A DNA stretch of 64,000 nucleotides, from IMG/VR virus record IMGVR_UViG_3300046804_003780; one strand, given 5' to 3'. Every line of letters begins with the position of its first letter. Within the stretch, counting starts at the first letter, position 1. Under the pieces are notes generated by a model that was not told the DNA's origin, did not search any database, and saw only the letters and a program-made list of their open reading frames with translations. Position numbers and translations under genes: made by a program. Source of the DNA: a virus. Positions 4,667-54,615 of this stretch are shown here, one piece after another.

Positions 4667-4903
4667 CTATAAACCCGAAAGATATAAGACGCACATAATT
4701 ATGTTCAGGATCCACATGCTTGGTTGTTTCCAAAGAAAACCCAACCAACCCCATAGAACAGCAGTTATTAAACCAAAATATTTGTTAATTGGCACAAAAT
4801 CATGGCTTGTCAAATAAACAGTTATCAAAGCCAAAAACGTAGCAGACCATTTTACATAAAAATCTAATGGTTTATTAAAAAGTATTGGTTTACCATTATA
4901 CAT
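4667..4903 (-). CDS. Small three-TM membrane protein
   Basis: Hydrophobic helices; overlaps the epimerase stop. Confidence 0.7.
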   Translation of the reverse strand: MYNGKPILFNKPLDFYVKWSATFLALITVYLTSHDFVPINKYFGLITAVLWGWLGFLWKQPSMWILNIIMCVLYLSGL

Positions 4904-5858
4904 TAAAAATAGTGGAATTGTTTAACCAATTGTAATATTTTAAAAAACCATCCTCTACATTTACTTTTGGTTCGTATCCAAAGTCTCTGACTGCTTTTTC
5001 AATACTTAATCTACCACGTTTTGGAAAGCTTAAATCTCTAGGCCCTACAATTAATTCACCCTTGCCTGCAATTTTTATTGCTAACTCTGCTGCTTGTTTT
5101 AATGTCCACAACTGATCTGCACTACGGGTGATATTATAAATTTCATTTATTGTATTAGGACTTAAACTCGCTTGTACGATACCTTCTGCTGCATCGTCTA
5201 CATATGTAAAATCTAGAATCTCGTCAGGTCCGTTTACTTTTAGTGTTTGTCCACGTATAGCTCCTAAAACAAATTTGCTAACCACCCTATCTTCCACATC
5301 AAGTTCACCGTATACAGCACTAGGGCGAATAATGACATGTTCAATACTAGTCCTGCGAGTATAATCTTGTACAAGTTTTTCTCCCATAAGTTTAAAGATA
5401 CCATACTGACCTATAGGATTGCATGTACTATCTTCTGTTACATCATGTTCAAAGTCTCCATAAACCATACTCGAACTGATATACACAAATCGTTTTACAT
5501 TATTCTTTATTGAGGCTTCTAATAGATTAGTAAGTCCTTCACACATTACTTTTGCACCCATTGCAGGGTCAGCTTCAACTGCTTTTTGTCGAGGATAACT
5601 AGCACAGTGAATAACTAAATCAGGTTTAATATTTTTAAAAATTATTTGTAAATTATGAAAATCAACTATGTCGATAATATAATTTTTGTAGTTGTTAATT
5701 TTTTTTCTGCGTTGATTGATTAAGGAATCAATTTGCTGCTGAGGTATAAAACCATAATTAGTATGATTATCAACAATAACAATTTCGTGATCATGTTCTA
5801 GTTTACTTACAATGTTATGTCCTATTAGACCCATCCCACCTGTGACTAATATTTTCAT
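4896..5858 (-). CDS. NAD-dependent NDP-sugar epimerase/dehydratase (extended SDR)
   Basis: VTGGMGLIG, ISSSMVYG, YGIFK (YxxxK), DFTYVDD. Confidence 0.92.
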   Translation of the reverse strand: MKILVTGGMGLIGHNIVSKLEHDHEIVIVDNHTNYGFIPQQQIDSLINQRRKKINNYKNYIIDIVDFHNLQIIFKNIKPDLVIHCASYPRQKAVEADPAMGAKVMCEGLTNLLEASIKNNVKRFVYISSSMVYGDFEHDVTEDSTCNPIGQYGIFKLMGEKLVQDYTRRTSIEHVIIRPSAVYGELDVEDRVVSKFVLGAIRGQTLKVNGPDEILDFTYVDDAAEGIVQASLSPNTINEIYNITRSADQLWTLKQAAELAIKIAGKGELIVGPRDLSFPKRGRLSIEKAVRDFGYEPKVNVEDGFLKYYNWLNNSTIFNV

Positions 5859-18436: not shown

Positions 18437-18475
18437 TTGTAACAGAATTGTCATACTACGGCCATTAAATATTTA
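18437..18475 (+). promoter_or_regulatory. Pho box followed by a TAAATA late-type element, upstream of pstS
   Basis: TTGTAAC-agaa-TTGTCAT (11-bp period, resembling PhoB consensus CTGTCAT-N4-CTGTCAY), then 11 nt, then TAAATATT. Confidence 0.75.
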
Positions 18476-18514
18476 TTGCAAAATATAAATTTTCTTAAAA
18501 AGGAGACACACACT

Positions 18515-19540
18515 ATGAAAAAACTATTTGCAGTTTTATCTTTTGCAGTAGCAGGTATAGCAACAGCAGCAGAATTTACTGGCGCTGGAGCTACATTCCC
18601 ATTTCCAATCTACGCTAAATGGGCGGAAGCCTATAAAGCACAAACTGGAATCGGCTTAAACTATCAAAGTATCGGTAGTGGCGGCGGCATTCGTCAAATC
18701 AAAGCAAAGACAGTTGACTTTGGTGCAAGCGACATGCCATTAAAGAAAGAAGAATTAGATAAAGAAGGTCTTGTTCAATTTCCAGCAATTATTGGCGGTG
18801 TAGTACCAGTTGTTAATTTAGATGGCATACAACCTGGTCAATTAAAGTTGACACCAGAAATAATTGCAAATATACATTTAGGTAAAATTACTAAATGGAA
18901 TGATAAAGCTATTGCCGAAATTAATTCAGGTGTAAATTTACCTGCATTAAATATCACAGTTATTCATCGTGCAGATGGTTCAGGCACTACATTCATTTGG
19001 ACAAACTTTCTAAGCAAAGCTAATGCAGACTTTCAAAAGATAGTAGGCGAAGGTACTGCTGTTAAATGGCCAGTTGGTGTAGGTGGTAAAGGTAATGAAG
19101 GTGTTGCAGCACAAGTACAACGCATTAAGGGTAGTTTTGGTTATGTAGAATATGCATTTGCTAAAAGAAATAAAATTGCACATACACAATTAAAGAATCG
19201 TGACGGTAATTTTGTACAACCAGATGATAGTACATTTAAGGCAGCAACAGCAAATGCAGATTGGGTTAATGCTCCAGGAATGTATTTGTTACTAACATGG
19301 CAAAATGGAAAAGATACTTGGCCAGCAACAGGTGCTAGTTTCATCTTAATGCATAAGCAACAAGCAGATGCATTAACAGGTCGTGCAGTTCTCAAATTCT
19401 TTGATTGGAGTTACAAGAACGGCAGTCAAATGGCATCTGAATTAGAATATGTACATATGCCACAAGATGTAATTAAGCTTGTTCAGGAAAATTGGAAGAA
19501 AGACTTCCGTGGTCCCGATGGTAACGCAATTTGGAAATAA
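18515..19540 (+). CDS. pstS: Periplasmic phosphate-binding protein PstS
   Basis: Signal peptide; GAGATFP, YQSIGSGGG, DFGASD, HRADGSGTT, GKGNEGV, GYVEY; AAGGAG RBS. Confidence 0.97.
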   Translation: MKKLFAVLSFAVAGIATAAEFTGAGATFPFPIYAKWAEAYKAQTGIGLNYQSIGSGGGIRQIKAKTVDFGASDMPLKKEELDKEGLVQFPAIIGGVVPVVNLDGIQPGQLKLTPEIIANIHLGKITKWNDKAIAEINSGVNLPALNITVIHRADGSGTTFIWTNFLSKANADFQKIVGEGTAVKWPVGVGGKGNEGVAAQVQRIKGSFGYVEYAFAKRNKIAHTQLKNRDGNFVQPDDSTFKAATANADWVNAPGMYLLLTWQNGKDTWPATGASFILMHKQQADALTGRAVLKFFDWSYKNGSQMASELEYVHMPQDVIKLVQENWKKDFRGPDGNAIWK

Positions 19541-19550
19541 GGAAAATTAA

Positions 19551-20957
19551 ATGAAAACTTTTACAAAAATAGCATTAAGCCTTGCATTAGCTTTTAGTAT
19601 TCCCGCATATGCTGATGAATATCTAGACACTTTAAAAATTTTAAAGGATAAAGGCATTTTGACACAGACAGAGTATGATGTTAAAGTCAAAGAATATGAA
19701 GATAAAGCAGAAAACAAAAAATTTTCTGATCAAAGGATAGATAAAGATGTCAGCGACAACAACAAATACAGAATCGCAAGAATCAACGACGGATCTGTAT
19801 CAGAAAACGGAATCGGACTTAAATCTAAGGATGGGAACAACACTCTCAACCTTACGGGTAGACTACATATGGACTATCGTCAGTACGACCCCACTTATGG
19901 TGCAGGTCAAACCACAGATTCGTATCAAAATGTAGCTGAAGTTCGTCGTGCTAGATTTGGTGTTCGTGGTCAGTTTGCTAAAGACTTCAAGTATCAATTA
20001 CTCGCCAACTTTGGTAATGATGCTGGTTCTAGTGCAACTACGACAACTGCTGATGAAATGTGGGTAAACTATGCTGCCAATCCTGAAATGCAATTTCAGT
20101 TTGGGTTATTTAAAATGCCATTTAGTTTAGAACAGTTAACAAGTTCAAATAATATAGATTTTATGGAGCGTAGTCTTATTGGACAAACCGAAGGAGAATT
20201 TATTCCTGCAAAAGAAACAGGCTTTATGATTCATGGAATACCTAAGCCTGGTTTACTCTATCAAGTAGCAATAAGTCGTGGTCGTGGTAACAAAGATGCA
20301 GCTAACGACGGCTTTGACTATATCGGTCGTGTTGTAACTAACATTGCTGAATTACAAGGTAGTAAAGCTTATGTGTTACACTTAGGTGCAGCATATAGTA
20401 CAGGTGAGATTAAAGGCGGTGTTACACCAGCAAGTGGTAGAACAGAATCACGCAGTCAATCAGCCTGGTTCACAGGTCCAGCGTTAAGTGGTGCTACTAC
20501 AAGAACACGCCAAGGTCTTGAAGCGGCTTTTGCATATAATGGATTGAAGTTACAGGGTGAACAGTTCCAATTTAATTATGATCCTACTACAGGTAAAGAT
20601 CAGAAAATAAATGGATACTATGTACAAGCTTTGTATAACTTGACAGGTGAAAGTCACAACTATAAAGACGGTATCTTCAATTGGATCAAACCTAATAATC
20701 CAACTGATAAGGGTGGCCGCGGTGCATGGCAAGTTGGTGTCCGTATGAGTGAGTTTGATGCTAGTGATATTGCTGTAGTTGCTGGCAAATCTAATCGTGC
20801 CACTGCTATGACCTATGGAGTCACTTGGTTCTGTACAGACAATTTACGCTTCATGTTAAACTATGTAGACACAAAGTTTGACAGTTTAGTAGGAAGTTCC
20901 GGAAGTCGTGTGACTGGCGATAAAGCAGTTATGTTTAGAAGTCAATTAAGTTTTTAA
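19551..20957 (+). CDS. Phosphate-selective porin (OprO/OprP family)
   Basis: Signal peptide; GRLHMD, RRARFG, GLFKMPFSLEQLTSS, FMERS; C-terminal Phe; co-operonic with pstS. Confidence 0.88.
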   Translation: MKTFTKIALSLALAFSIPAYADEYLDTLKILKDKGILTQTEYDVKVKEYEDKAENKKFSDQRIDKDVSDNNKYRIARINDGSVSENGIGLKSKDGNNTLNLTGRLHMDYRQYDPTYGAGQTTDSYQNVAEVRRARFGVRGQFAKDFKYQLLANFGNDAGSSATTTTADEMWVNYAANPEMQFQFGLFKMPFSLEQLTSSNNIDFMERSLIGQTEGEFIPAKETGFMIHGIPKPGLLYQVAISRGRGNKDAANDGFDYIGRVVTNIAELQGSKAYVLHLGAAYSTGEIKGGVTPASGRTESRSQSAWFTGPALSGATTRTRQGLEAAFAYNGLKLQGEQFQFNYDPTTGKDQKINGYYVQALYNLTGESHNYKDGIFNWIKPNNPTDKGGRGAWQVGVRMSEFDASDIAVVAGKSNRATAMTYGVTWFCTDNLRFMLNYVDTKFDSLVGSSGSRVTGDKAVMFRSQLSF

Positions 20958-20971
20958 ATAAAAAACTTTCA

Positions 20972-20999
20972 AAAAAAAGGCACTTAAGTGCCTTTTTTT
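20972..20999. terminator. Bidirectional intrinsic terminator
   Basis: Perfect palindrome A7-GGCACTTAAGTGCC-T7. Confidence 0.88.
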
Positions 21000-21004
21000 G
21001 TGGT

Positions 21005-21041
21005 TTGTAATGGTATTGTCATACAATATATTCTAAATATT
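21005..21041 (+). promoter_or_regulatory. Second Pho box followed by a TAAATA element, upstream of the plcP-like gene
   Basis: TTGTAAT-ggta-TTGTCAT, then 11 nt, then TAAATATT; same geometry as at pstS. Confidence 0.75.
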
Positions 21042-21044
21042 AAT

Positions 21045-21854
21045 ATGAAAACACATTATCGCACTATTTTTATATCTGATGTACATTTAGGAACTAAAGA
21101 TTGTAAGGCTGAAGCTCTAAACAATTTTTTAAAAAATCAAACATGTGACACTTTATATCTTGTAGGCGACATAATTGATGCGTGGAAAATAAAACAAAAT
21201 AAATGGCGTTGGAAACAAAGTCACACAAATGTGGTACGCAGAATTTTAGGTCATGCTAAAAGAAACACAAGAGTAGTTTATGTAATAGGCAATCATGATG
21301 AGTTTTTAAGACCTTTTCTACAATACAATTTAAATTTTGGTATGGTAGAAATGCATAATCAAATTGAACATATAGGTATTGATGGTAAGCATTATCTAGT
21401 TGTTCATGGAGATTTATTCGATGGTATAACAAGACTAGCACCTTGGCTAGCAATTTTGGGAGACAAAGCATATGACGCCGTTTTATCTTGCAATACTAGA
21501 ATCAATAGCATCTTACATAGAATGGGCTTTGGTTATTTTAGTCTCAGTCACTATCTTAAACGCCGGGTAAAAAAAGCAGTGGATTTTATATTTCAATTTG
21601 AAAAGAATCTTGCTGCCTATTGTAAGAAAAAAGGTTATGATGGTGTGATATGTGGGCATATTCATCATGCTGAAATAAAAAATGTAGATGGAATAATTTA
21701 CATGAATGACGGCGACTGGGTAGAAAGTAATACTGCTTTAGTAGAACACACGAACGGTCGTTGGGAAATAATTACATGGAGACAAGAATCTGATAATGTA
21801 TTTGATGATATTGATAGCAGTACATCTGAGCGATCCAAAAGACATACCAGGTAG
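21045..21854 (+). CDS. plcP: PlcP-like (LpxH2-type) metallophosphoesterase, putative phospholipase C
   Basis: YRTIFISDVHLG, LVGDIID, GNHD (His, whereas LpxH has GNRD), HGDLFD, CGHIH, NDGDWVES; start MKTHY. Confidence 0.75.
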   Translation: MKTHYRTIFISDVHLGTKDCKAEALNNFLKNQTCDTLYLVGDIIDAWKIKQNKWRWKQSHTNVVRRILGHAKRNTRVVYVIGNHDEFLRPFLQYNLNFGMVEMHNQIEHIGIDGKHYLVVHGDLFDGITRLAPWLAILGDKAYDAVLSCNTRINSILHRMGFGYFSLSHYLKRRVKKAVDFIFQFEKNLAAYCKKKGYDGVICGHIHHAEIKNVDGIIYMNDGDWVESNTALVEHTNGRWEIITWRQESDNVFDDIDSSTSERSKRHTR

Positions 21855-21969
21855 AATAACTCTTGAATTTACTGATCAAATAACTTGTGAACAAAGTTTG
21901 CAAAGTATGACATATTGGTTAAAATTTAATAATTTTAAAATTGAAGGAAAGTGTGTTAAAAAAATATGA
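21796..21969 (+). CDS. 57-aa protein with hydrophobic N-terminus and two Cys (MYLMILIAVHLSDPKDIPG...GKCVKKI)
   Basis: Read by hand; its stop overlaps the GT2 start (ATGA); resembles 23406..23591. Confidence 0.7.
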   Translation: MYLMILIAVHLSDPKDIPGRITLEFTDQITCEQSLQSMTYWLKFNNFKIEGKCVKKI

Positions 21970-22676
21970 AATTAAGCGAAAAACTTACTATAATAATTCC
22001 ATGTAAGAATGAAGAAAATTATATAAGTAATTTACTTCATTCCTTAAGATTACAAAAAATAGGCGACACTAAAGTTATTATTGCAGACTGTTCAACAGAT
22101 AATACTAGAGAAGTAATAAAAAATAATCGTGCTTTTTTGAATATCGAAATTATTGAAGGCGGTCCTGTTGCGATTGCGAGAAATAATGGAGCAAAATTAG
22201 CTACAACACCTTACCTGCTTTTTTTAGATGCAGATGTTATATTCTTTGATAACTACGTTATTCGTGACTCAATTTTTATTATGGAGTTAGAAAAGCTTGA
22301 TTTACTTGGTGCGAAAATAAGATGCTATGAAGATAATTGGAAAGCAGAATTAAGCTTTATGATTTTTAATTGTATCAATGACATGCTAAAATATTTTTCT
22401 CCATTTGCTGTAGGTGCTTTCTTTTTAACTCGTAAAGACAAATTTGACGAATACGGTGGATTTGATGCGCGGTATACGACCTCAGAGGATTTCTTTTTAT
22501 CAAGAAAATATGAACCTGAAAAATTTGAAATCATAAATCATTATTTTGGCCAAGACTCACGCAGATTTAAAAAGATGGGATATTTTGGTATGGGTTGGTA
22601 TCTTATTAGAAATTTTATGAATCGAAACAACAAAAAATATTGGGATAAACTTGATCATACAAAATATTGGAGTTAA
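21966..22676 (+). CDS. Family 2 glycosyltransferase
   Basis: IIIPCKNEE, ADCSTD, ARNNGA, FLDAD (DxD), GGFD, SED. Confidence 0.9.
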   Translation: MKLSEKLTIIIPCKNEENYISNLLHSLRLQKIGDTKVIIADCSTDNTREVIKNNRAFLNIEIIEGGPVAIARNNGAKLATTPYLLFLDADVIFFDNYVIRDSIFIMELEKLDLLGAKIRCYEDNWKAELSFMIFNCINDMLKYFSPFAVGAFFLTRKDKFDEYGGFDARYTTSEDFFLSRKYEPEKFEIINHYFGQDSRRFKKMGYFGMGWYLIRNFMNRNNKKYWDKLDHTKYWS

Positions 22677-22680
22677 AATC

Positions 22681-22738
22681 GGACACAAACATAGAGTGTC
22701 TCTGGAACTCGTAACCAGATGCCCAATTGGGCTTTTTT
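22681..22738 (+). terminator. Two hairpins followed by an intrinsic terminator
   Basis: GACAC/GTGTC, TCTGG/CCAGA, then GCCC-AATT-GGGC-T6. Confidence 0.6.
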
Positions 22739-22759
22739 CATGGCTATAAATACTCTATC

Positions 22760-23404
22760 ATGTCCCCAACAATAGCATTATTTCTACATCAACCAAAATG
22801 TTCGGTCCAAAGCGGGAACGGAATTATTAAAGCCCTAAGCCCATACTACCGTTTCAAAATATTTACCAAACATGAGCTTGAGGATGATTTTTTTGATGAT
22901 GTGGATATAGTAGCAATTCCGGGAGGTATAGGGGATAGCGATACATTTAGATACTTAATGCGAACTAACGGACAAAGAATTCGTAACTTTGTAGCATCAG
23001 GTGGTAAGTATTTGGGAATATGCATGGGTGCATATTGGGCAGATACGGATTATTTAGGTTTACTTAATAGCGTAAGAGTAGTACAATATATAAAACGGCC
23101 AAATACAGACACTAAACGACCACATGCTAAGAACATCTATGTAAACTGGTTAGGTCAAGAAATGGGTATGTATTTTTATGATGGTTGTTCTTACGAAGGT
23201 GATAGTAGCAAATTTGAAACTATTGCCGTATATAAAAACAACGACCCAATGGCGATTATACAGGATAATGTAGGATTAATTGGTTGTCATCCAGAAAGTG
23301 AGAAGCACTGGTATGATAGTTACACTTGGATGCGCAAACATTATCATGGTGATACACATGGGCAACTATTGTTAAATTTTGTAAACTACTTATATAGGAA
23401 ATAA
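22760..23404 (+). CDS. Class I glutamine amidotransferase-like protein (BPL_N type)
   Basis: IPGG, GGKYLGICMGAY nucleophile elbow, HPE; TATAAATA 7 nt before ATG. Confidence 0.8.
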   Translation: MSPTIALFLHQPKCSVQSGNGIIKALSPYYRFKIFTKHELEDDFFDDVDIVAIPGGIGDSDTFRYLMRTNGQRIRNFVASGGKYLGICMGAYWADTDYLGLLNSVRVVQYIKRPNTDTKRPHAKNIYVNWLGQEMGMYFYDGCSYEGDSSKFETIAVYKNNDPMAIIQDNVGLIGCHPESEKHWYDSYTWMRKHYHGDTHGQLLLNFVNYLYRK

Positions 23405-23405
23405 T

Positions 23406-23591
23406 ATGTGGGCATTATTAGTTGTAAGCATTTTTGTAAACAGTCCAATAGATACAAAAACTACAGGATCAATGGAATTAAGATTTCAAACAAGAGAAGA
23501 ATGCATGGAGGCTAAGGGCAGATTTGATAATTTGCAAAGTTTTAAAAACAATAGAATTAAGACCTCATGCAGTTACAGATCATACTTATAG
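23406..23591 (+). CDS. 61-aa protein with hydrophobic N-terminus and two Cys
   Basis: ORF; putative paralogue of 21796..21969. Confidence 0.7.
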   Translation: MWALLVVSIFVNSPIDTKTTGSMELRFQTREECMEAKGRFDNLQSFKNNRIKTSCSYRSYL

Positions 23592-23600
23592 GATATCAAA

Positions 23601-23852
23601 ATGGAAGATATTATCATTGATATGAACTCAACTTTAGATTATAAAACTGTAAAAACTATAATAACGAAATATATTGAAGAACAAACTGGTAAAACTATTT
23701 GTGAAATTGTTCCGATAATAGACAAAGAAAATTTATCAGGATTTAAAATAATTTATCAAAGCGAACATTCTAGTTATTATGTCGGTAGTAATGACAAAGT
23801 TAACAGACCTCATTTAGTAGATAAAACTTTTAAACCAATGGCTTTTTATTAG
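23601..23852 (+). CDS. Hypothetical protein
   Basis: ORF with AGGA RBS. Confidence 0.7.
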   Translation: MEDIIIDMNSTLDYKTVKTIITKYIEEQTGKTICEIVPIIDKENLSGFKIIYQSEHSSYYVGSNDKVNRPHLVDKTFKPMAFY

Positions 23853-23861
23853 GAGATAATT

Positions 23862-24080
23862 ATGAAAGACATAGCTTTCCGTGTTTTTACTTATAGTTTG
23901 TTTTTTGGTTATTTACTGTTACTTGGTACAGTACTGTCTGGATGTAGTAACCAATATGATAATTGCATTGAAAAAGAAAAAGAAGCCTATAGGCAAAAAA
24001 ATCCAAAAGCAAGCTATGGACAGGTCGCTGCTAAACAACAAGAATTTGAAATGATGTGTTCAAGCTTTAAAGGGAAATAA
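23862..24080 (+). CDS. Small putative lipoprotein
   Basis: AGGAG RBS; hydrophobic leader ending in lipobox LSGC. Confidence 0.7.
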   Translation: MKDIAFRVFTYSLFFGYLLLLGTVLSGCSNQYDNCIEKEKEAYRQKNPKASYGQVAAKQQEFEMMCSSFKGK

Positions 24081-25000: not shown

Positions 25001-25022
25001 TAAAAGTGGCCCTAAGGCCACT
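25001..25022 (-). terminator. Terminator ending the tmRNA coding piece
   Basis: AGTGGCC-TTAG-GGCCACT followed by TTT on the minus strand. Confidence 0.75.
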
Positions 25023-25023
25023 A

Positions 25024-25342
25024 AACTATTTTTGGTTACAAGGCATAGTTGCCCCGAAGATCATGCTGCTAGAGCAAAAACCTCATCGTTAGCTGCGTTT
25101 GCAGTTATAGTTTTGCTTGATTGACAGTCATCGCCTACTGTGTTGTCCATATCCTTACTAATTGCCCTGTCGAAACCAAATTCAGGCCCATCATAAGAGG
25201 ATTATAGCAAATGCAATCACTATGGCTGCTAAACTATAAACAATTGTTTCGCCTACTTGATACATTCTAATCTCCTTATGGTGGACCTGCCCGGGGTCGA
25301 ACCGGGGTCCAGAACACCTTTCATTCAACTTCATACAACAAT
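25024..25342 (-). ncRNA. ssrA: Circularly permuted (two-piece) tmRNA: acceptor piece ~25342-25279, intervening segment 25278-25190, coding piece 25189-~25024; tag ANAANDEVFALAA at 25102-25061
   Basis: T-arm CCCGG-TTCGACC-CCGGG and CAGGTCC-A-CCA lie upstream of GGGCCTG (7-bp acceptor stem with G3:U70); GGTTTCGAC D-loop analogue; pk1; ATAACT-GCA resume context; tag ends in LAA-stop; downstream pseudoknot. Confidence 0.95.
25191..25265 (-). CDS. 24-aa hydrophobic peptide MYQVGETIVYSLAAIVIAFAIILL inside the tmRNA intervening segment
   Basis: TAAGGAGA RBS 5 nt before ATG; RBS plus ORF fill the segment from CCA to G1. Confidence 0.55.
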   Translation of the reverse strand: MYQVGETIVYSLAAIVIAFAIILL

Positions 25343-25470
25343 TCTTTAAGCTGTTGACAATATACTTGACATTGCCCACACCTATGATCCAGCTCAAAAA
25401 TACGCTGAATTAATTCCTCTTTTGTCTTAAAATCTGATTCTTTAATATTTCTACAAACACAAATAATCAT
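25321..25470 (-). CDS. 49-aa Bfd-like [2Fe-2S] ferredoxin (MIICVCRNIK...CGQC)
   Basis: Read by hand; N-terminal CxC and later CxxC as in bacterioferritin-associated ferredoxin; 3' end overlaps the tmRNA. Confidence 0.6.
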   Translation of the reverse strand: MIICVCRNIKESDFKTKEELIQRIFELDHRCGQCQVYCQQLKELLYEVE

Positions 25471-27850: not shown

Positions 27851-29266
27851 TTACTTTATATTTTTCCAGTCATTATATAATTCAATAAATTCGGGAAATA
27901 TTTGTAAAAAATTAGTTCCGCGTCTTTTATCATGCTCATCTACAAACTTTATAAAGTCCTGTCTATTGATGCTTAAATTAGGATTTGGATTGTCAAGCTC
28001 GTGATTTACGATTGTTAAGACTCTTTTTAATTTATCAATTTCATGGTCATAGAATCCCATATAGGCCTGAGAAGGAATTCGTAAACCTATCTCTTTGTGG
28101 TCTTCCATAAACTTTACCTGTTCTTCAATAAAATGTACATAATTTTTTGGTATTATAAATGCTGGTTGATGAGCAGGGAATCTTAAATAGGGTATATCAA
28201 TAGAAAGTACCATTTTACGATTAGCAACTGATATTTCTCTATACTTTTGTCTTATATCTAACACATCTTGTAAAAATGTTTTGAATGATGGTACACTTAA
28301 AATATTGTAGGTGCTAGTTACTGATAAAACTACATTGGGTACTTCAGTAATAAGCCTTTCAATATTTTTAATCCAATCATTGTAATTTAAACCAAAGCGT
28401 GTATATTCTGCTTGTTTACCATGTGCCTCTGCACTTGTAAAAATACGCAGTTTCGATACACATTTATTTTCATCTATTATCTTTAATTTTTCAATAAGTT
28501 TATCAAACAATTCTTTTGGAGGATTTAAATTAGAGTTAATACTGAAACATAATTTAGGATTAGGATTTTCAATGATATAATCTAAAACTTTAAATGTATC
28601 TTTACTTAATATAGGTTCTCCGCCTGTTATTCTAAACTCTAAAAGTTCTTTATACATCTTAGGCCACCAGTCCCAAAACGCATCCATGTATGGATTATGC
28701 TGATTGTTTGGTATTGGTATTTGATTCTTTGTTTTAATCCATTCTAAACTGTTAAAATTTGAAGTAGTTGGATAAGGACCATGTCTTTCAATTTCTTCCA
28801 TCCATTGACTACTTATGTGAGGCATACAATAACTACACTTAAAATTACATACACTACTAAAACTCACCTCAACATAACTTGGATTAACATCATCGTCCCA
28901 AGGTTTGTCACTAATATCTTTAATAAAAGGATAACCCCACATAGGATCTGCGCTTTTATAAATTCTGTCACTATATTGGTTTCCTGCATCCTCTGCTCTC
29001 CAACAATAATCACATTCAGTTGGTCTTATTCCAACTAACATTTGTTTTCTTAATTCTTTTTTGAATTTAGTATTGTGTAGGGCTGAAGGATTTACTGCAA
29101 TTTCTTCTAATGGAACTAGGTGAGTTCCTGGGTGATGACAACTATGAGTGTGTCCATTATGTAAATGCATCGTAACTTGTTTCCACTTAGCAACACAAAA
29201 ACTAGGACTCACTGCGTTAATTTCCTCAGCAGCCTTTGCTAAATGTTTTTGATAATTATCATTCAT
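27851..29266 (-). CDS. Radical SAM protein with N-terminal twitch/SPASM-like domain
   Basis: CNFKCSYC (CxxxCxxC), TGGEP; N-terminal CVAKW...SCHH...CDYCW. Confidence 0.9.
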   Translation of the reverse strand: MNDNYQKHLAKAAEEINAVSPSFCVAKWKQVTMHLHNGHTHSCHHPGTHLVPLEEIAVNPSALHNTKFKKELRKQMLVGIRPTECDYCWRAEDAGNQYSDRIYKSADPMWGYPFIKDISDKPWDDDVNPSYVEVSFSSVCNFKCSYCMPHISSQWMEEIERHGPYPTTSNFNSLEWIKTKNQIPIPNNQHNPYMDAFWDWWPKMYKELLEFRITGGEPILSKDTFKVLDYIIENPNPKLCFSINSNLNPPKELFDKLIEKLKIIDENKCVSKLRIFTSAEAHGKQAEYTRFGLNYNDWIKNIERLITEVPNVVLSVTSTYNILSVPSFKTFLQDVLDIRQKYREISVANRKMVLSIDIPYLRFPAHQPAFIIPKNYVHFIEEQVKFMEDHKEIGLRIPSQAYMGFYDHEIDKLKRVLTIVNHELDNPNPNLSINRQDFIKFVDEHDKRRGTNFLQIFPEFIELYNDWKNIK

Positions 29267-35391: not shown

Positions 35392-38300
35392 TTAGTCACT
35401 TTTTAAGAAATTTGCTGGTATAGTGTTGCTAATTTGCAGTGGATCACCATTAGCAGAATAATCATCACTATTCCAAATTTTGTTATAATAAAACGGATCT
35501 AGAATATCTTTTGTTGAAAAACTCAAAACATATGAATATTTGTCCTGTGTTGGGAGAATCGCAGTTCCTTCTGCTCCCCTGACAAAATTAGTTATAGTGT
35601 TATCTTCAATATTAATATTTTTAAATCTAATTTTTTCGCCGTTTATTATTATTGTATTACCAAATCGCAATACAAATTCTAAAGCATCTCCGTCTGTTAC
35701 ACCTGAGGTGAAAATTACCTGAGTTGTAGAATTTACTGTATTAAGATAATATGAGGTTTTAGCTAACTCAAGTCCTGTTACTAAATTATTTACAGTTAAC
35801 AAAACTATATCTACTATGTTGTAGTTTAAGTAGGAGTAAATCTTTTGCGTTGTTATGTCATAAGATGCATAAGAAACCGTTGATGTTATATCGACCAATT
35901 TAGTTACATCATCAACGTAGATTTTAGTATCAGTAGGATAAATTGGTCTAACTAACCAAGTGCGATTTTCAATATTGCTGTTAGCAATCACCATTTCGTT
36001 ATTTTTGTTTACTGTTAAAGTATACCAAAGTTCATTTGGAGTAGGAGAGGGCATATAACTAGTAACAATAATTGTATTGCCAAGTGCAATAGGAGACATT
36101 ATACTTAATCTATTATTTGGCTGATTTATACGCAAATTATTAGGTGTAACTCTAGTACCATTTATATGTACAAACAATCTATTTGTATCTATAATATCAA
36201 GTGTAGGTTGATTAATTGAAATTGTGTTTGTATATTTCCAAATAAAGCCGCCAGAACCTACTCCGTTAGAATAGAATGTTCCGTAAGTGTTACCTATTAC
36301 AGGTACTGAAAGATTAAAATCACTATAAAGCTCATATCTATAATATGTAACTGCATTCTCAACATATGTTGGCAAAACTCTTACATAAAAAATATTATTA
36401 TTAATTTCAGTAATATTTTGAACTCCATCTATTAATACTTGATCTTGATTTACGAAAAAAGCATTTGTAGCTGTTGTAACTACAACAGGTGTAGCAGGAG
36501 TATTTATATAATAAATTGGAGTTACTCTTATAGATGTTGACGTTTGCGTTACGAAAAATTGATTTTGAGTATCGTTAAATGAAGTTACACTAACTATTGT
36601 ATTAGCAGCAATTGATGGTATAACAGTTAATGTAGTTCCAACAATTGTGTAGTCAATAGTATTTCTTGCACGTATTCCATCAATTTCAACTACCGCATTG
36701 TTAGGATTGTTTCCTCCCATATTGTTAGTTAATGTAAAAGTTTTTGGTCCACTTACGTACTGAAAAACTTGAGTTTCAGGCATACAATATTGATATATTG
36801 TGTTTGCAGGGCCGTAAATTGCAAAACTAACATACTGAGTAGCTAAATTAATAATAGATGTAAAAACAATGGTAATTGCATTTGATTTATTTGGTTCTAT
36901 TTTATAATCAACATTGTTTATTTTTTTAACCCCATTAATATACACTACTGGAAATAAATATACTCCATCTTTATATGGATAATTTGTGTCTATGTAACTT
37001 ACATTTTTCTTTGCATCAAACTTAACAGGAACATTATCAGATGTACCTTTAACTTCTTGATTTCCGCCTCCTAAACTATAGACTTCAAAATAAATTTTTT
37101 CTGTAGGACTTAATGGTGAAGTTAATGTTACAACCTTAAAAACCCAATCTATTGATTGTATTTTAACTAAACTTGTAGGGGTAGGCACTTGATTAACAGT
37201 GTAAATGCGTGTTGCTCTATTATTAGTATTCGAAATTATATAAACTGCAATTTGTGTTGCGTATGGTGATAAATTAGCAAAACTAAATGCAGTAGAGTTA
37301 CCTAAATCAAATATTCCGCTATTTACATAAAATCCAAAATTTTCGTATACAGTAGGATCCCAAAGTGATCCAGGTGTAGTCTTTACTGTAAGCTGAAGAT
37401 TATCTGTTATCAATGCTGGTACCATTTCTTCTGGTCCATATCCTGATAAGAATGTTTCTCCTTTTATGTTATATTCAGGTTCATTAGCAGTTAGGAAAGA
37501 AATATTTTCCCAATCTATTACATTGCTACTACGTAAAATTGTTGAGTTTTCACCTACTGCAATTAAATAATTGCCATCAAATTCAATTTCATTTAAATTA
37601 TTTGAACTTATTTGTGAGGTTTGACTCCATGTTTCTCCGTCTGAGCTATAAAGTATGTAACCATTATTACAAATTACTATATAGGTGTTTAGAGCATAAA
37701 TGCCGTGATTTATTTGTTGATTAAACGATGGTCCTAATATGGTAGCTACATTCCAGTTGCTTGCGTTGGTTGACCAGTAAATTTTACCAAAATCACCTGC
37801 AGCTATAATTTTTGTATTTGAACCAAATACTGTGTTAAAATTTACATCAAATGTTTGATTAGTATTGGTCCAAGTTATGCCATCGTAACTTATTACGACT
37901 CTAGCTTGGTCAGCAAATACTGGTGAAGGAGTGTCTGGACCTTCTATAATAGATGTTCCATTTCCAACTGCGATAAATCCTTCGAAACTGGTTGCGTCAG
38001 CTCCTGGTATATATGCAACTGATTTTAAAACGTTTGGTAATCTACTGCCAAAACTATACCCTGTTCCCCAGCTTGTTGCATTAATACTACTCAAAACATT
38101 ATTACCAACAGCTACGTAATTATTATTGTAGTACACAACATCGTATAGTTCATCATTAGGAGTTTCTACAGATAGGGTATCAAACCCTGCAACATCAAAC
38201 GGAGCATCATCATAAACTGTGTATGAACCTACACTTACCCAGTTAAATCCATCATAGCTTATGAGCAGAGGAGCACTAGCATTCAATGCACTAATTACGT

Positions 38301-41300
38301 AAAAAGAACCTGAGTAAATTATTCTAGTCACATTAATAGGTGTATCACTTATTTTTTTAAATGTCCAGTTTCTACCATCAATACTATATAAAACAGTTGC
38401 ATTCGTAGCTGCATTACCAATTGCTACATATTTGGCCCCGTCATATACTATACTTTTTATATCAATTTCTTTTGGATAAAACGGCTGTCCTTGTAAAATT
38501 ACATCTAATTCAAAATCATCATTAAATTTATTACCTAAATTAGTACCATTAGGATATTCTAATCCTGTCATTAATAATGGTAAATGTTTACCAGGCATAT
38601 TGATAGTTGGTTGGTAATAAGCAATAATTCTGTCTAACGCATTTATAAATGGGTAATCACTTTGTAATAACTCCCATTTAGTAAAATCAAAAGTTGCGTC
38701 ACTATTTGCCACAATGCACTTATACAATTTATTATTATAAGTGACCAATGATGCTGCAGGAATAGTGAATGGTTCAGGATAAAAACCAATATCTCCTGCG
38801 GTAAATATGAATGGAGTAGCCCCTGTATTTTTTACAGGATTAATTAACGTTGCATCGTAAAATAATCGGCATTTTGTTGCACTTATTGGTATCGTATAAT
38901 ATTCATCAAATGCATTGGAACATATACCACTTAAACTATAAAAAACTATGGCTCCGGATAAAGCAAAAGTAACAGTAATTATTAAATCATTTGCCGGTGA
39001 AGAGCCTCCCAAAAGTGCTCCTGATATTGTTATAACGTCTCCGGTAGTGTAAATATTTCCAAAATCTTTTATGTCAATATCATACTCATTTGACACAGTT
39101 GTGCCATAGATTCTTGGGCTAGTAACCCAAATAATGGCACCACCAGAACCTGAATTATCATAGATATATGGAGTTGTAAGTCTGGCTACTTTATAGAAAT
39201 AAAGTTTGGTCTTATTAAGATATCCAGCTGCTAGACTAGTATTTGTGTAATTAAATGTTACAATGACATTATTTGTACCAGATTCTGTTGTTACTGCTGA
39301 TATTGGAACAGTGGCCCCTTGTAGGCTTGACAAGAATACAGGTTTAGCAACACCTTCAACAATAAATTGTGTTATTGATCCGGCTAAGGTTACGCTTACA
39401 ACAGTTATTGTACAACTATTTGTAGGAGCAGTTCCTCCCAATAAATTACCTGGTATCGTAATTACATTTCCTGCTTGATAATTTAATCCTCCACTATTTA
39501 AAATTGCTGTGTACACACCAACGTTATTGGCAGTTGAATAAAAATCAGGTGGCTCGTCTTGGTTACCATAAATCCAAGCATATACATCAAATAAAGCTCC
39601 TGATCCTCCCGCAGGACTTACGTTTCCTGAAACAGATGGGAAAGGTATTGCAGTAGCAAGCTTACTTGCATAGCTTGCATCATTTCCTATGCTATTATAA
39701 GTTGAGATGTAAAATTGATTTGGCTCCCAAACAGTAACCTCAGGTCTATAACTAGTTCTGTCAAATTTTAATACAGGAGTAATTTGTCTTGTAGGAGCAT
39801 TACTTGATATTGGAGCCAATCTAGCACCTAATGTTAACACATGATTATTACTTGGAGTTCTTCCTTGGACTAAAATTAATCTATGTGTATCAGTTAAAGC
39901 ATTAATTTTTGAAATGTAAAATGCAATAGCAGTAGGTCTATTTTGATTTGCAATAGTAACTGCAGGTTTTTTAGTTCCATATTCAATTAATCTTATATAA
40001 TAATATTGATTATCTATTAATCCCAAAATAGTTGATAAATTGCTACCTTTACTGTATTTTAATAAATCTCCTGTTTCAAACAATTTAAATGGAACGTTTA
40101 TAGTATAATTTGTATAGTTTATATCAGAGGTATTAAATTTATGTTCAATTGACGGTTCAATAATTAACTCAGGTAATACCTTATATCCTTCACCTGAATT
40201 TAAAACAGTAACAGCAACAACTTCTCCTGCTGACATTTGGGCCTTAAGGGACGCTTGTACTTTAGGAGCAGGAAAAACTTCTGTATTTACGTAACTTACA
40301 ATATTTGGTGGTTCTGTGTATCCTCTACCACCATATATAACACTTACGGCAGGCAAATCTATAAAGATTTTTGTTCCTGGAAAATGATCTACAACTTCAG
40401 TATCTAATGCACCTCTTGTTAATCCAGATAATATTCCCAAATCTCTGTCAACTGTGTTATAACCTATATATTCATTATCAATTTTAATCACGCCTACTGT
40501 TGGATATCCAAATGCATTATCAACAACAATTATTTTTGTTGCGACTGGGACATATTCACGCAGTAAACCAATAAAATAATTTTCTTTTCCTTGCAGTTTT
40601 ACTCCGTAGTTATTAAACCATTGATTATACTGTGGTTCTTGCCATATTTTATCAGAAGAATTATATTGAGATTCTAGCAACGTGTCACTAAAAACTAGTT
40701 CAGGAGTAATAAAAGAATCAAGTGTTGCATTCCATTGAGCAGGTAAATCAAAATCAGAAATATCTCCGTCATATAGATTTGTCTTTGTATATTTTAAACT
40801 AAATTCTTTAAGTTTTACTCTATATGGTTTAACCTCATTGATATATCCATAAAGAAAATCTTCATTGTCACGTTGGAAATTTTTAGTTTGCTCTAATTCT
40901 CTTAAAGTGTGTTCTACATCTAAAAATGAGGTTTTGTTTAACCAAGGTAAATAGTTACCAAATTCTTCTGTTTCGGTTATAATATATTGAAATAGTAAAA
41001 TTAGTCCTTGATTTCTATAAATTAATAGGTCATCAGTGAAAACTTCTTCATTTAATCCACGTATGATATTGTAGGTTTCTACTGACGGGAAACTGTCATA
41101 AGGTGTGCTATCGTAAAAACTGTCCCCAAATCCTATTCCGTTAATGCTATAATCATAGAGAGATTTTTTGATTGCAATTGTCCCTAGCTCTAGTCCGATT
41201 CGGTTCCAATTATTATTTTGATATAAATAAACTTCACGCTTACCGTTACTGTTAGCATTTACTCCAACTATCATATTCTCAAAAGCATTTAACTTTTCTA

Positions 41301-44300
41301 AATCGTAATATTTTGGAACGTCAATATCAGTTCTTGTTGAATCTGAATAACCTTCTGCCCACCAGTTTACATATTCCCAATAATTGTTTGTGTCAAAATC
41401 ATCTCCGGAAAGTGTGAAAAACGCAGGAGCATTTAACCCTGTTGTAGCCACTCCTCCCAATGTAAGGAAGCTAGGATTTTTCAACTCAGTTATAGGAAAC
41501 TTAATCATTACATTATTTGCAAACTGCACATAATTTTCCAAAGCCCGTAATCTGTTATAGAAAAAACTTTGGCTTGGTCGCAAATTAGTGCCAGTTTGTA
41601 ATAATCTAGGTAAAAATGGGTTAGGAACAGATTGTCCTAACAAATCAACTCCTGAAAAACTATCTAATAATTTTTGATATAAACCATTAGGAGTGACTAG
41701 GTTATTATACAATGTGGGGAGTCCAGGTAGAAAATCTTCTGCATACCCATCACGTATCAATTTAAATTCTGTGTGAGCAACATCATTCCCACTATCTGTT
41801 TTATATCCTAAATGCAAACTTGTAAAAGTAGCACTAATATATTCAAACACATTATACAAAGCATACACATTTTGTTTTAATGGTGCTAAAAAAGCTATAC
41901 CAGAAGTAATAGGATTAGAAATGTAGGATGAAACTATATTATCCGCAAGTGTTTTTGCATTTGATAAAACGGTCCCAATATTTTTAACCCAATAATAATA
42001 TCTTGTTACTATAGTACCACTTTCAACAATTTCGTTTAATGTTGTGTAGGCATCAATATCGTAAACAGTACCAACACCAGTATAATCTATAGGTAAAACG
42101 TCACTTTCTATCCACGTGTAGACTGATACTGTGCTGCCTGGAAACACTGTTCCCCAGTATCTACTATTATATAAAATGTTATTTTGATGATAATCAATAA
42201 ATTTGGTTTCAGATGTGTCGAACCATAATTTTCCAACGTATTCTTGTCCCCAAACAGATTTCCTTACATTGTTATTATTATATCCTGCAGGGTCTACGCT
42301 TGATATGTAATCTAAGTTTTGTGCGACAACACCTAATAATTTTCCTTGTAAAGGATCAATATAATCTAAACTTACAATGTTTAAATTATTTAAATTGTTA
42401 TATATTGAAACTCCATGTAGTTTGTTTATGTCTACAGTATTGGTGGGGTTTCTATAAATATACCAATTAGGTTTTCCAGAAGTATTTCTAAAAATATTAA
42501 CTCTACCATTTTGACTACCACTTAGATATGTGGGAGATCCAATTATAATGTTGTAATTATTAAACGAAATATTAGTTCCATAATACGGGGCACTGCCTAA
42601 AGTTGTGGTTGTATCGTTGACTAATTGACCAAGAACAAATTTTCCAATATTGTCTATACTTTCGTTGTACGCACCTAAATAGTCATATACATATGCTGAT
42701 CCTGCATCTGCAACAACATCAGTAAACACTGTAAAGTTATTATCAAAAATAGTGTCATTGCTATAATCTTCGTCATCAGTAAAATCAAATGTCGTTTGAG
42801 TATATCTATTACTTGTAGGAGCAGACACAACAAAGGAATTTAATTCATTAAATTTTATTGATGTTCCGTATTGAGTATTATTTTGTATGTTAGGATCGTG
42901 TAAAGTTTGTGTTTTTTTATAGAAAGTTATACCTAAACTTGCAAAATTTGCTTCTGCGAATACTGTTAAATTAAGTTTATCTTCCAAAACATTTAAACTT
43001 TGATTGATTAATTGTATTACAAGTTTATTATCATTTGTTTTTGATGCTATTACATTTGGAATATTTGCCTCGTTTATTGCAATAACCGCATTATTAATTC
43101 CAGTTGCAGGTAAAGTCACCGCAAATCCATTAATTAAAATGTTAATTTGACTTGATAAATTGTAAACACTAGAACCAGTGATTATGCCAAACTTTTTACC
43201 TGCATTAGTATATCTATAGACTGTACCTTCTGTTCCTGTTGCATCTACGATATCAAATGGAGAACCTACTAATAATTCATTACCTAAGTTATTATTACTT
43301 AATCCCTTACCATAAAGTATACCTACTCTTGGATTGGTAACTTCGCTGTGTCCTATGAGTGTTTGACTTAAAATAAAATCATTACCTTCAACCAATATTA
43401 AATCACCTGCTTTCAACACAATTTGTTCTTTAATTGTTAAAATATTTGTTGATAGTGTATAATTAGAACTTGATAAAATATTACCATTTAAAAATACACT
43501 TATAGAATTTGTAGGTGTCCATGCTAAGGCAAAACTAGTAGCAATTGTTTGAATGGGGGTAAATCTTGACTCAAATATTTGTTTAACTCTATTGTAAATG
43601 TATACAACTCCTGTATCCGTAACAGCATTAAAGTCTTGATTAGGCGCACTTATGAAAAGTTGTGTTCCATTGTAATTTGTAGAAATGTTTGATCCAAAAT
43701 TTGTTGCTGACCCTGCGCCGGTAATTGTTGCAACATTTGTATAGTCATAATAGGCTCTGTAAACTGTAGTGCCTATATTAGCTCCTGCAAAGAAATAACC
43801 TTCTATGGTAAAGGTTGTTAAATTACTACCTGCGTCAAATTCTCCTGTGATGATTTTGTAGGTTGTTGATCCATTTACATTAGAGAAACTAACCATTTGT
43901 CCTTCTAATAATAATGATCTTCTATCTCCTGAAACTCTAAATTGATTACCGTTAACAGATATAGCAGAGGTTAATGGATATCCAATACTTGTAAAAGTTA
44001 AATTTGAATTTTTTCTATACACAAATACTTGTCTTGTAGAACCTCTACCTACAAAAAAGTAATTACAATCGTCACTCATCACTACTTTATCTGCAGCGCC
44101 ACTTCCGCTTATATTAAATGAATTTTGTAGGGCAACAGCTTCAATTTTTTCAGTCGAAACTAGTTCATAAATGTAAACTATGCTGGTTGTTGCAGATTTT
44201 AATATGGCTAAAAAGTTTTGTTTTTTATCCATACTTGAACCAAACCCAGTTGGGCTTGATGGTATTGTAATTGTTTCGTCTAAATTCCAAAAGTTAATGT

Positions 44301-54200: not shown

Positions 54201-54615
54201 CAGCTAATCCCAACCCATTAATGTCTATTACATTTTCAGACGTTGTAATGCTTGTTATCTTTAAAAAACCTTGGGCAGTATTGTTTCTTTTTGGATTGTA
54301 ATTTACTAGATTGGCTAACTTAATAACACTATCTCTGCGTTCTGCTGTATCGATAAAATTTTCACGTGTGTTTAAATCATCACGGAAAGATACAGCTTGA
54401 CCCATAAAAGCTATTACATCAAGCAAGGCTATAAATTCACTGCTTTCAACGTAATCGTTGAAAGTTTCAGGATAATATAAACGAAGGTAATCTATAAAAC
54501 TTTTACGTAAAGTTTCATAATCATAGCTTTGAAAATTAGCTTGACTATATGTTTTATAGACTGTTTTCCAGTCGTTTACACCAAAAATTGTAGCTTGTCT
54601 TGAACTTGTAGCCAT
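51259..54615 (-). CDS. gp6: Baseplate wedge protein, T4 gp6-like
   Basis: YDYETLR, FNDY..SS, ENFIDTAERRDSV, FGDGVF, ESIADIKARAP..SQNRMVNGEDY. Confidence 0.88.
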   Translation of the reverse strand: MATSSRQATIFGVNDWKTVYKTYSQANFQSYDYETLRKSFIDYLRLYYPETFNDYVESSEFIALLDVIAFMGQAVSFRDDLNTRENFIDTAERRDSVIKLANLVNYNPKRNNTAQGFLKITSITTSENVIDINGLGLAGIPIFWNDPANPNWLEQFNSVINAALVDAQRIGRPANTQEIANIKTEEYTLKIPSSVLPVIPFNATVGGVTMNFECVSATSIDETYVYEIPPNPKGTFNILYRNDKLGYGSTNSGFFLYFKQGSLVNYDFTLNQQISNQVVPIGEIQGVNNTDTWLYKIDPTTNQLLNWVQVENLYANTYLREQNSRKAVFSVTSRFNDQVNYIFGDGVFSEIPVGSFRAYVRSSNGLQYVIDPVELTNTTLTFSYVSKFNRIETLTLTVELTQPINNAQTRESIADIKARAPVYFYSQNRMVNGEDYNNFPYTLYSSIIKTKALNRTSIGISRNFDLLDPTGKYSSTTSFGDDGALYLNTNDKFYDFNTSEASGSANRLFSNQILEIISNRNLYQYYVVNANRYPINLASGDGVTTWNQTSYDGTVVTGYFKNAGGPVAAGVFNAYNLKYCTPGALIKFVAPSGYYFQNERLVAGAPPSINNTFMWVNVLNVVADGFNGGEGNLYNGLGPVSLSKFVSTGAILDTIIPVFDNILPTPILQLVLDYFENLQSFSLYYVNNLPVNVDRWFVGNYNRPDALIKFESLGSGAYRITSKAITYYFGSVKNTRFTFDSEKIIFDPLSGTLAYDKINVLKTNTTPNSLSILGENFNLNVVGQTVEADGYPDDYSIEVSSLDAKNSSLIDNPDFFTTITGYTFGSTNTSYFVFIETFTDINYLTKNGITEPILINYNYPNKNDVEVVKYEYPIGQIFYAYSENKFYQSVADSTAENIVNLVAVTNYTALTGRQSIFFQYNHLSNNTTRIDPGTTNIIDLYIVTLAYYTTYTNWLKDTTGTVSEPAKPTVEQLTQEYSKVNDYKMMSDTVVFNSVTFKPLFGVKAAPQLQATIKVIKSSLTTASDSEIRAAVLTAMNNYFSIDNWDFGDTFFFSELSAYLHTNLNGLISSAIIVPKDPSLTFGDLYEVRCAPYEIFVNGAQSNDIVIIAAITPEQLQP

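Follow-up and report, generated by a model that had tools for sequence, protein, structure and literature searches.

The stretch of DNA analyzed here (hereafter the window) comprises 64,000 nucleotides of the virus recorded in IMG/VR as IMGVR_UViG_3300046804_003780, and harbors, at 18437-22676, a cassette of two co-oriented units on the + strand divided by a strong terminator. An initial annotation of this region, made from the sequence without database searches, had placed each unit behind a Pho-box-like repeat, with the first unit encoding PstS and an OprO/P-type porin and the second encoding a metallophosphoesterase with a GNHD motif, a small open reading frame (ORF) and a family 2 glycosyltransferase (GT2). 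All of these parts were found in place, with the start codons of pstS and of the metallophosphoesterase gene, plcP, corrected to the ATG codons at 18515 and 21045 from the upstream TTG/GTG codons of a mechanical ORF list.

The first unit opens with the Pho-box-like direct repeat TTGTAAC-AGAA-TTGTCAT (18437-18454), which a spacer of 11 nt separates from the -10-like hexamer TAAATA (18466-18471). The pstS gene (18515-19540), which is preceded by the Shine-Dalgarno sequence AAGGAG at 18500-18505, encodes a periplasmic phosphate-binding protein with a signal peptide (N-terminus MKKLFAVLSFAVAG) that matches Pfam PBP_like_2 and PHROG 5385 (phosphate transporter subunit), and scores above two curated equivalog cut-offs (NCBIfam NF008171, 421.7 bits versus 339; TIGR00975, 367 bits versus 205). 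The outer-membrane protein encoded downstream (19551-20957) covers positions 2-345 of the 370 in the Pfam PF07396 (Porin_O_P) profile at 184.8 bits, with a cut-off of 20.9, and has both a signal peptide and a C-terminus ending in LSF, with Phe as the last residue. It is classed as an OprO/OprP-family porin and is a candidate for anion/phosphate selectivity. No match to the porin was obtained by tblastn in 50,697 deposited phage records, nor does it belong to any PHROG. The unit is closed by an intrinsic terminator, AAAAAAAGGCAC-TTAA-GTGCCTTTTTTT (20972-20999), with a 12-pair stem and a T-run.

The second unit begins with another Pho-box-like repeat, TTGTAAT-GGTA-TTGTCAT (21005-21022), again followed after 11 nt by TAAATA (21034-21039). 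The plcP gene (21045-21854) encodes a 269-aa Mn-type metallophosphoesterase of the PlcP family, a candidate phospholipase C without a signal peptide. Its 3' end is overlapped by a conserved ORF of 57 aa (21796-21969) with a hydrophobic N-terminus and two conserved Cys residues, the stop codon of which in turn overlaps the start of the GT2 gene (21966-22676), suggesting translational coupling of the latter with the plcP unit. The GT2 is a small, soluble protein of 236 aa with a GT-A fold (Pfam PF00535, 72.7 bits), and a candidate diacylglycerol glycosyltransferase. A GATase1/BPL_N-like ORF (22727-23404, + strand; Pfam BPL_N, 44.2 bits) lies further downstream and is possibly co-transcribed: since no terminator was detected between 22676 and 24080, the second unit may extend through 22727-24080.

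Family placement of the metallophosphoesterase

The enzyme encoded by plcP presents the metallophosphoesterase motifs DVHLG, GD, GNHD, HGD and GHIHH, and an alignment with 39 diverse relatives shows no variation at residues D12, H14, D42, N83, H84, H121, H205 and H207. The GNHD motif, which the initial annotation had cited as telling PlcP from LpxH, is shared by the window protein with all 80 of the bacterial relatives and with 34 of 35 phage-side proteins, as opposed to GNRD in the three LpxH sequences compared (3/3). Scores against the LpxH models are far below their cut-offs (NF003743, 46.1 bits versus 134; TIGR01854, 34.6 bits versus 190), and the sequence relatives found in the PDB, all of them LpxH, match only the N-terminal half of the protein (E ~6e-5), with their GNRD aligned opposite the GNHD of the query. 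A search of 1.84 billion representative proteins yielded 870 relatives at E < 1e-30, most of the best 150 being 40-53% identical over the full length. The closest homologues in species-representative genomes reach 47-56% identity and occur in Burkholderiales (Limnohabitans, Variovorax, Acidovorax, Roseateles), in Pseudomonas and in many Alphaproteobacteria. Alongside a true LpxH (332, 219 and 219 bits), genomes of Pseudomonas and Limnohabitans each encode a second, distinct paralogue (37-55 bits) that is the one related to the phage protein, and in one Caulobacter and one Roseospira genome no LpxH-level match was found and the paralogue alone was present. In the inferred tree, LpxH is set apart on a very long branch, and all 33 sampled phage proteins group together with an SH-aLRT support of 99 in a single clade, which lies within the bacterial PlcP-like proteins. 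The nearest neighbors of this clade are Pelagibacter phage Mosig and a Pseudomonadota metagenome-assembled genome, followed by gammaproteobacterial sequences that include Pseudomonas. The proposed test by phylogeny thus grouped the enzyme with bacterial PlcP and apart from LpxH.

The genomic context of the bacterial relatives points in the same direction. Among the 80 closest bacterial relatives of the window PlcP, a family 4 glycosyltransferase (GT4) of the Agt type is encoded within 5 kb of plcP in 56 loci, in nearly all cases directly downstream, in agreement with the assumption that the usual neighbor of bacterial plcP is a GT4 Agt. A scan of 37 ORFs downstream of bacterial plcP also identified three polyphosphate kinases and two diacylglycerol kinases. 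The observed synteny is the same as the published bacterial arrangement, plcP-agt(-dagK) (PMC9239053, PMC13691135 and a P. aeruginosa preprint). The bacterial PlcP-Agt pathway, known from Sinorhizobium meliloti, Phaeobacter MED193, SAR11 HTCC7211, P. aeruginosa (PA3219/PA3218), Burkholderia and Methylosinus, uses the same enzyme family (47-56% identity) and shares with the phage unit the GNHD motif and a glycosyltransferase gene downstream; its Pho-box promoter has a Pho-box-like counterpart in the phage unit. The phage unit differs from it in being encoded by a phage, in its 236-aa GT2 partner, in the inserted 57-aa ORF, in an apparently leaderless plcP mRNA and in being joined to a pstS-porin operon.

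An AlphaFold model of the protein (pLDDT 86.4) consists of a phosphoesterase core with a helical insertion at residues 122-195. The top 25 structure matches of this model in the PDB are all LpxH, which shares the calcineurin-like core and has a helical lid inserted at the same place, but the lid of the phage enzyme superposes poorly and the root-mean-square deviation is ~12.6 Å over ~265 columns. A poor fit of this kind is what would be anticipated between sister families whose lids differ. The LpxH reading being rejected on the low model score, the GNHD motif, the long branch and the separate paralogue, the metallophosphoesterase is filed here as a putative member of the PlcP family.

Partner genes in viral relatives

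Two surveys of viral contigs used PlcP (374 contigs) and the GT2 (382 contigs) as respective queries; the counts of loci given below refer to the best 80 of the PlcP survey, which are 74-93% identical to the window protein, and to 80 loci of the GT2 survey. The small ORF was detected by tblastn in 75 of the 80 plcP loci, at 48-100% identity. The position following plcP, or plcP and the small ORF, is occupied by this GT2 in 46/80 loci and by a GT4 of the Agt type in 30/80. In loci without the GT2 and with enough DNA, this position always holds an ORF of ~300-345 aa, and 22 of the 23 that were scanned are GT4s, the profile of which aligns over its full length with bacterial Agt (hhalign probability 100, E 8e-67). 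A GT4 was never found by tblastn, among these 80 loci, in a locus with the GT2 within its flanks. When mapped onto the PlcP tree, the GT2/GT4 state requires at least nine changes by parsimony, two of which are forced by strongly supported branches; loci L021 (GT4) and L025 (GT2), for instance, are sisters on that tree. Conversely, in the GT2 survey plcP lies upstream of the GT2 gene in 67 of the 67 loci with enough upstream DNA, directly so in 66 of them, and the spacing between the two genes accommodates the small ORF in 50 loci, leaves plcP abutting the GT2 gene in 16 and amounts to a gap of ~1 kb in one.

The initial annotation had proposed that the phage uses a GT2 instead of a GT4. This stands for the window, where the gene downstream of plcP encodes a GT2 with a GT-A fold and not a GT4, where no Agt homologue occurs anywhere in the 64 kb, and where the position at issue is the one filled by GT4 in sister phages. 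It does not extend to every relative: the 524,565-bp contig IMGVR_UViG_3300027749_002876 (loci L185, 8181-9942, and L075), rated 100% complete, has a plcP-GT4 pair without the small ORF at ~82 kb and a plcP-small ORF-GT2 arrangement at ~184 kb. The possibility that this contig is a concatemer was ruled out by its single baseplate wedge gene. The two kinds of pair can therefore coexist in one genome, a situation that we liken to that of P. aeruginosa, in which two glycosyltransferases make two glycolipids.

The GT2 itself has inverting-type motifs, DAD and the ED in TSED. Membership of GT2 predicts an inverting mechanism for it, and membership of GT4 a retaining one for Agt. Its model (pLDDT 86.6) shows a generic GT-A fold, and an attempt to assign the acceptor from the fold with Foldseek and VIA-align returned only generic GT-A neighbors. 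The best NCBIfam match, TIGR04283 (arsenosugar-type glycosyltransferase), was rejected at 67 versus a cut-off of 182. All 27 GT2 homologues tested match Pfam GT21 (best E 3.5e-9), more weakly than they match generic GT2 profiles; we take GT21 to be a family that includes lipid glycosyltransferases. A search of a protein-cluster atlas with the GT2 returned viral GT2 clusters, one GT21-bearing bacterial cluster, and CrtQ-like or mftF-like clusters, which serve as leads only. The C-terminal 41 residues contain 10 Lys/Arg and 10 aromatic residues without a transmembrane segment, a composition that suggests interfacial membrane binding. Diacylglycerol glycosyltransferases outside GT4 include cyanobacterial MgdA, of CAZy family GT2, and the rhizobial processive Pgt, of GT21, which the phage GT2 resembles in its GT-A fold, its inverting-type motifs and the GT21 matches of its homologues. 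The sequence and fold of the GT2 are uninformative by themselves and the comparative evidence is decisive: linkage, rather than chemistry, leads us to read the GT2 as an alternative partner of PlcP and most likely a diacylglycerol glycosyltransferase. A gene for an NAD-dependent sugar-nucleotide epimerase/dehydratase (4896-5858, - strand), located 13 kb from the cassette, could provide a UDP-sugar donor; nothing ties it to the plcP module.

The alignment of 58 distinct versions of the small ORF reveals the pattern MWLMILIAVH-ND-KD-PG...CEQ...YWLKF--FK-EGKC, which includes the two conserved Cys residues. It has no Pfam or PHROG match, and no counterpart was seen in bacterial plcP-agt operons, where agt typically follows plcP directly. 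The ORF is also missing from some phage modules and is probably accessory.

Thirty of the 80 viral plcP loci have the pstS-porin pair on one side or the other of the plcP unit, and the flanks of the remaining loci lack it. Homologues of the GATase1/BPL_N-like ORF lie within 6 kb of plcP in 40/80, on either side and on either strand. The whole module is also present in a 163-kb phage (PlcP, 84% identity) with no match to the baseplate protein of the phage studied here, and the cassette therefore crosses phage lineages. More distant homologues of PlcP are encoded by Pelagibacter phage Mosig EXVC030M (Mosig_00120, annotated as putative LpxH; 46% identity), where the gene is divergent from the Mosig pstS, and by Synechococcus phage S-SRM01 (QPX48289; 40% identity), where the motif reads GNHE and the gene lies among photosynthesis genes. 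No partner glycosyltransferase was found in either phage using the phage GT4 as query. The Mosig ORF that follows plcP was considered as a homologue of the 57-aa ORF and found to be unrelated by alignment.

The window is part of a very large uncultured myophage, as determined by comparison of its baseplate wedge protein (51259-54615, - strand). Over 92-98% of its length, this protein shares ~32% identity with its counterparts in GAP32, Serratia phage BF, Sinorhizobium phage Phosso and other phages of 350-470 kb. These and other relatives suggest a genome size of ~350-520 kb. The G+C content is ~33% over the whole window, cassette included. The cassette is flanked by tail-fibre/chaperone genes on one side and by a transfer-messenger RNA (tmRNA) gene on the other. 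The latter encodes a two-piece tmRNA of the betaproteobacterial type (25001-25391, - strand; Rfam beta_tmRNA, 122.7 bits versus a gathering score of 84) with the tag ANAANDEVFALAA as predicted by ARAGORN, and this type hints at a betaproteobacterial host. Also on the - strand are a single ORF of 5,284 aa (35392-51246) beside the baseplate genes, presumably encoding a giant virion or fibre protein, and a radical SAM-like ORF (27851-29266), the matching gene of which in contigs of close relatives has Radical_SAM and SPASM domains.

The control motif of the two units

Both units are preceded by the shared motif TTGTAAY-N4-TTGTCATAC, followed by 11 nt and TAAATA. The window contains the sequence TTGTAAYNNNNTTGTCATAC at just two places, 18437 and 21005, both on the + strand. 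When up to two mismatches are allowed, the motif has three matches versus 0.25 expected, a number that none of 100 shuffled sequences reached, and a looser Pho-box pattern has only two zero-mismatch matches in the 64 kb, which are the same two sites. The two operons hence share what is by sequence one promoter design, in which the place of the -35 element is taken by an 11-bp-periodic direct repeat, an arrangement also seen in PhoB-activated promoters. Agreement of the motif with the Pho box consensus CTGTCATNNNNCTGTCAT, as quoted in published work on bacterial PlcP, extends to 10 of 14 positions, with the caveat that this consensus may not be that of the host. From this geometry, the 10/14 consensus match and the restriction of the motif to two phosphorus-related units, we infer that host PhoB reads the repeats. 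The plcP mRNA is probably leaderless, since the ATG sits 5 nt beyond the TAAATA hexamer.

The sister loci (1.63 Mb, both strands) were searched for a composite motif consisting of the direct repeat, 9-13 nt and TAAATA. Among the unique sister-phage regions, this motif precedes plcP in 31 of 63 and pstS in 11 of 20, and 42 of its 58 occurrences are located at plcP or pstS promoter positions. The distance from the hexamer to the plcP start codon is 4-8 nt in 29 of the 31 sister regions with the motif, and hairpins comparable to the 20972-20999 terminator are present upstream of plcP in several sister loci. A further conserved element is located ~50 nt upstream of plcP in L004, L006, L009, L015, L027 and other sister loci. 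It reads AATCGGTCAC-N8/9-GGTGACTCTGGA.CCGTAACCAG, includes a pair of short inverted repeats and may act as an operator or as an RNA leader; the pstS promoters of the phages that carry it read TTGTGAC-N4-CCGTTAC. Most of the other sister phages use this alternative element, and the control of the module has therefore diversified. In Mosig (L001, 5930-5985), TTAACA words are present between the divergent pstS and PlcP homologue, and two of these lie at a spacing of 11 bp (TTTTAACAAAAACTTAACAT); they may represent a Pho-box-like repeat of the SAR11 style that the two genes share.

Proposed phosphorus acquisition and rival explanations

Taking the gene identities, family placement, shared promoter motif, synteny and phage distribution observed here as a basis, we consider it probable that the cassette is a phage-borne phosphorus-acquisition island composed of an uptake operon and a PlcP/GT2 lipid-mining operon in which the GT2 glycosylates diacylglycerol, and that the phage probably strips phosphorus from host membrane lipids during infection. 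Under phosphate limitation, phosphorylated host PhoB would switch on both units, and the porin and PstS would raise phosphate capture via the host PstCAB transporter. PlcP, predicted to be cytoplasmic for want of a signal peptide, would cut inner-membrane glycerophospholipids to diacylglycerol and phospho-head groups, from which host phosphatases would free phosphate for phage DNA synthesis. The GT2 would glycosylate the diacylglycerol, and the resulting glycolipid, free of phosphorus, would preserve membrane function until lysis, and the 57-aa protein would play an accessory role beside PlcP and the GT2. A bolder version, in which the two operons form a mobile cassette that enables several lineages of large uncultured phages to remodel the membrane lipids of their hosts, with a new class of small soluble GT2 diacylglycerol glycosyltransferase and a 57-aa Cys-containing partner producing a glycolipid unlike the products of Agt, is put forward more tentatively, as a possibility somewhat short of even.

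Several observations weigh against the lipid-mining reading and have to be set beside the evidence for it. The comparison of the enzyme with the experimentally characterized PlcPs (SMc00171 and PA3219, and those of MED193 and HTCC7211) was made by proxy, through its 53-54% identity to a Pseudomonas quasicaspiana homologue; a published figure puts identity among the characterized PlcPs at 46-47%. Gene adjacency is weaker evidence in tightly packed phage genomes than in bacteria. With regard to the GT2, its fold matches to PcManGT, chondroitin polymerase, TarS, WrtF and SpsA tie at Z 18.7-19.6, and known GT2 diacylglycerol glucosyltransferases are larger, cyanobacterial MgdA having about double the length and five transmembrane helices as compared to a soluble protein with an amphipathic basic tail. 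The search of 401 genomes belonging to the class of a Limnohabitans genome revealed no close cellular GT2 homologue (best matches of 25-37% identity, in 12 genomes), and tblastn found the GT2 in none of the 80 bacterial plcP loci. With regard to the promoters, the first half-site, TTGTAAY, deviates from the enterobacterial Pho box, most sister phages have TGTAAY in both halves, and, among the 63 unique sister regions upstream of plcP, ~24 have the alternative conserved element where the repeat would otherwise stand.

The points concerning the GT2 leave room for a genuine PlcP accompanied by a glycosyltransferase that acts on a different acceptor, such as polyprenyl phosphate, a lipopolysaccharide or capsule intermediate or the released head group, so that phosphorus mining would be combined with an unrelated surface modification. 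A polyprenyl-phosphate mannosyltransferase heads the otherwise generic fold matches (Z 19.6), the GT2 has weak PHROG matches to GtrB-like proteins of O-antigen conversion, cellular plcP loci lack it, and the 524-kb phage carries a plcP-GT4 pair as well, so that the GT2 is not needed there as the sole glycolipid synthase. This explanation is nevertheless unlikely in view of the invariable linkage of the GT2 to plcP, its occupation of the canonical Agt position with repeated swapping, and the GT21 matches of all the homologues tested. The overlap of the small-ORF stop with the GT2 start suggests coupling with the plcP unit, and the GT2 is devoid of transmembrane helices, unlike GtrB, ArnC and DPMS-type enzymes.

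The deviations of the control motif could alternatively mean that the repeat is a phage-specific promoter or operator, read by a phage factor and timed by the infection program instead of by phosphate status. The preference of sister phages for TGTAAY over TGTCAY half-sites and the use of another element by many of them are compatible with this idea. So is the outcome of a simple search in which just 2 of 75 bacterial plcP genes proved to be preceded by the 11-bp-periodic repeat, a figure that is itself uninformative because the hosts differ and the gene starts are uncertain. We regard this explanation as distinctly unlikely, given that within 64 kb holding dozens of other genes the motif stands only before the two phosphorus units, that most of its sister occurrences coincide with plcP or pstS promoters, and that its geometry is of the PhoB type, with a direct repeat of 11-bp period standing in for the -35 element at a constant distance from the -10 element.

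Lipid remodeling might also be real and yet benefit the phage through an altered envelope (blocking superinfection or changing susceptibility to grazing or antimicrobials) instead of through phosphorus supply. Host lipid remodeling is reported to alter phage attachment and the outcome of predator-prey encounters (PMC9938194, PMC9457565, PMC9804370). The pairing of the module, both physically and by motif, with pstS and a putative phosphate porin, the predicted action of PlcP on cytoplasmic-face phospholipids and not on surface receptors, and the high phosphorus demand of a ~350-520-kb genome make a purely envelope-related benefit very unlikely. Lastly, the reading of the enzyme as an LpxH isozyme of lipid A synthesis, which follows the JGI names of its relatives and the GenBank annotation of the Mosig and S-SRM01 homologues as UDP-2,3-diacylglucosamine hydrolase, and which can invoke LpxH as the only solved structural relative, is scarcely credible against the model scores, GNHD motif and branch length reported above, its retention as a second paralogue in genomes with a true LpxH, the agt synteny and the Pho-type promoter.

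The lipid-mining reading differs from what has been described for viral phosphorus metabolism. Known viral phosphorus genes act in uptake (pstS, phoA) or signaling (phoH). The pstS and phoA genes of cyanophages and pelagiphages, which are under host PhoB, likewise provide a phage-borne PstS with a Pho-box-like promoter, and the window pstS shares with cyanophage pstS short stretches at 76-86% DNA identity; pstS has also been described in pelagimyophages (PMC12379486). Unlike these systems, the cassette adds a putative outer-membrane phosphate porin and a lipid-directed operon predicted to mine phosphorus. A literature search of incomplete coverage returned bacterial PlcP work and papers on host remodeling and no phage-encoded PlcP or phage lipid-remodeling pathway, and in PHROGs v4 neither the PlcP-type enzyme nor the porin nor the small ORF has a family, in line with the initial annotation, which was aware of no characterized phage-encoded system of this kind. 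What is new here is that the bacterial PlcP-Agt pathway occurs in phages, joined there to pstS and the porin gene, and that the phage studied here has a GT2 as its non-canonical partner together with an additional small protein.

The plcP gene is present in hundreds of viral contigs, and the lpxH labels borne by relatives and deposited homologues would lead to miscounts in surveys of viral genes that depend on them. The GT2 and the small ORF provide leads to possible new glycolipid synthases, and phage Mosig and its cultured host HTCC1062 offer an isolate system for the PlcP part of the pathway. If the reading proposed here is true, the virus-encoded mining of host membrane phospholipids would constitute a different way to pay the phosphorus cost of large genomes, and, should the bolder version hold, viral infection would directly drive the conversion of phospholipids to glycolipids and the recycling of phosphorus in phosphorus-limited waters.

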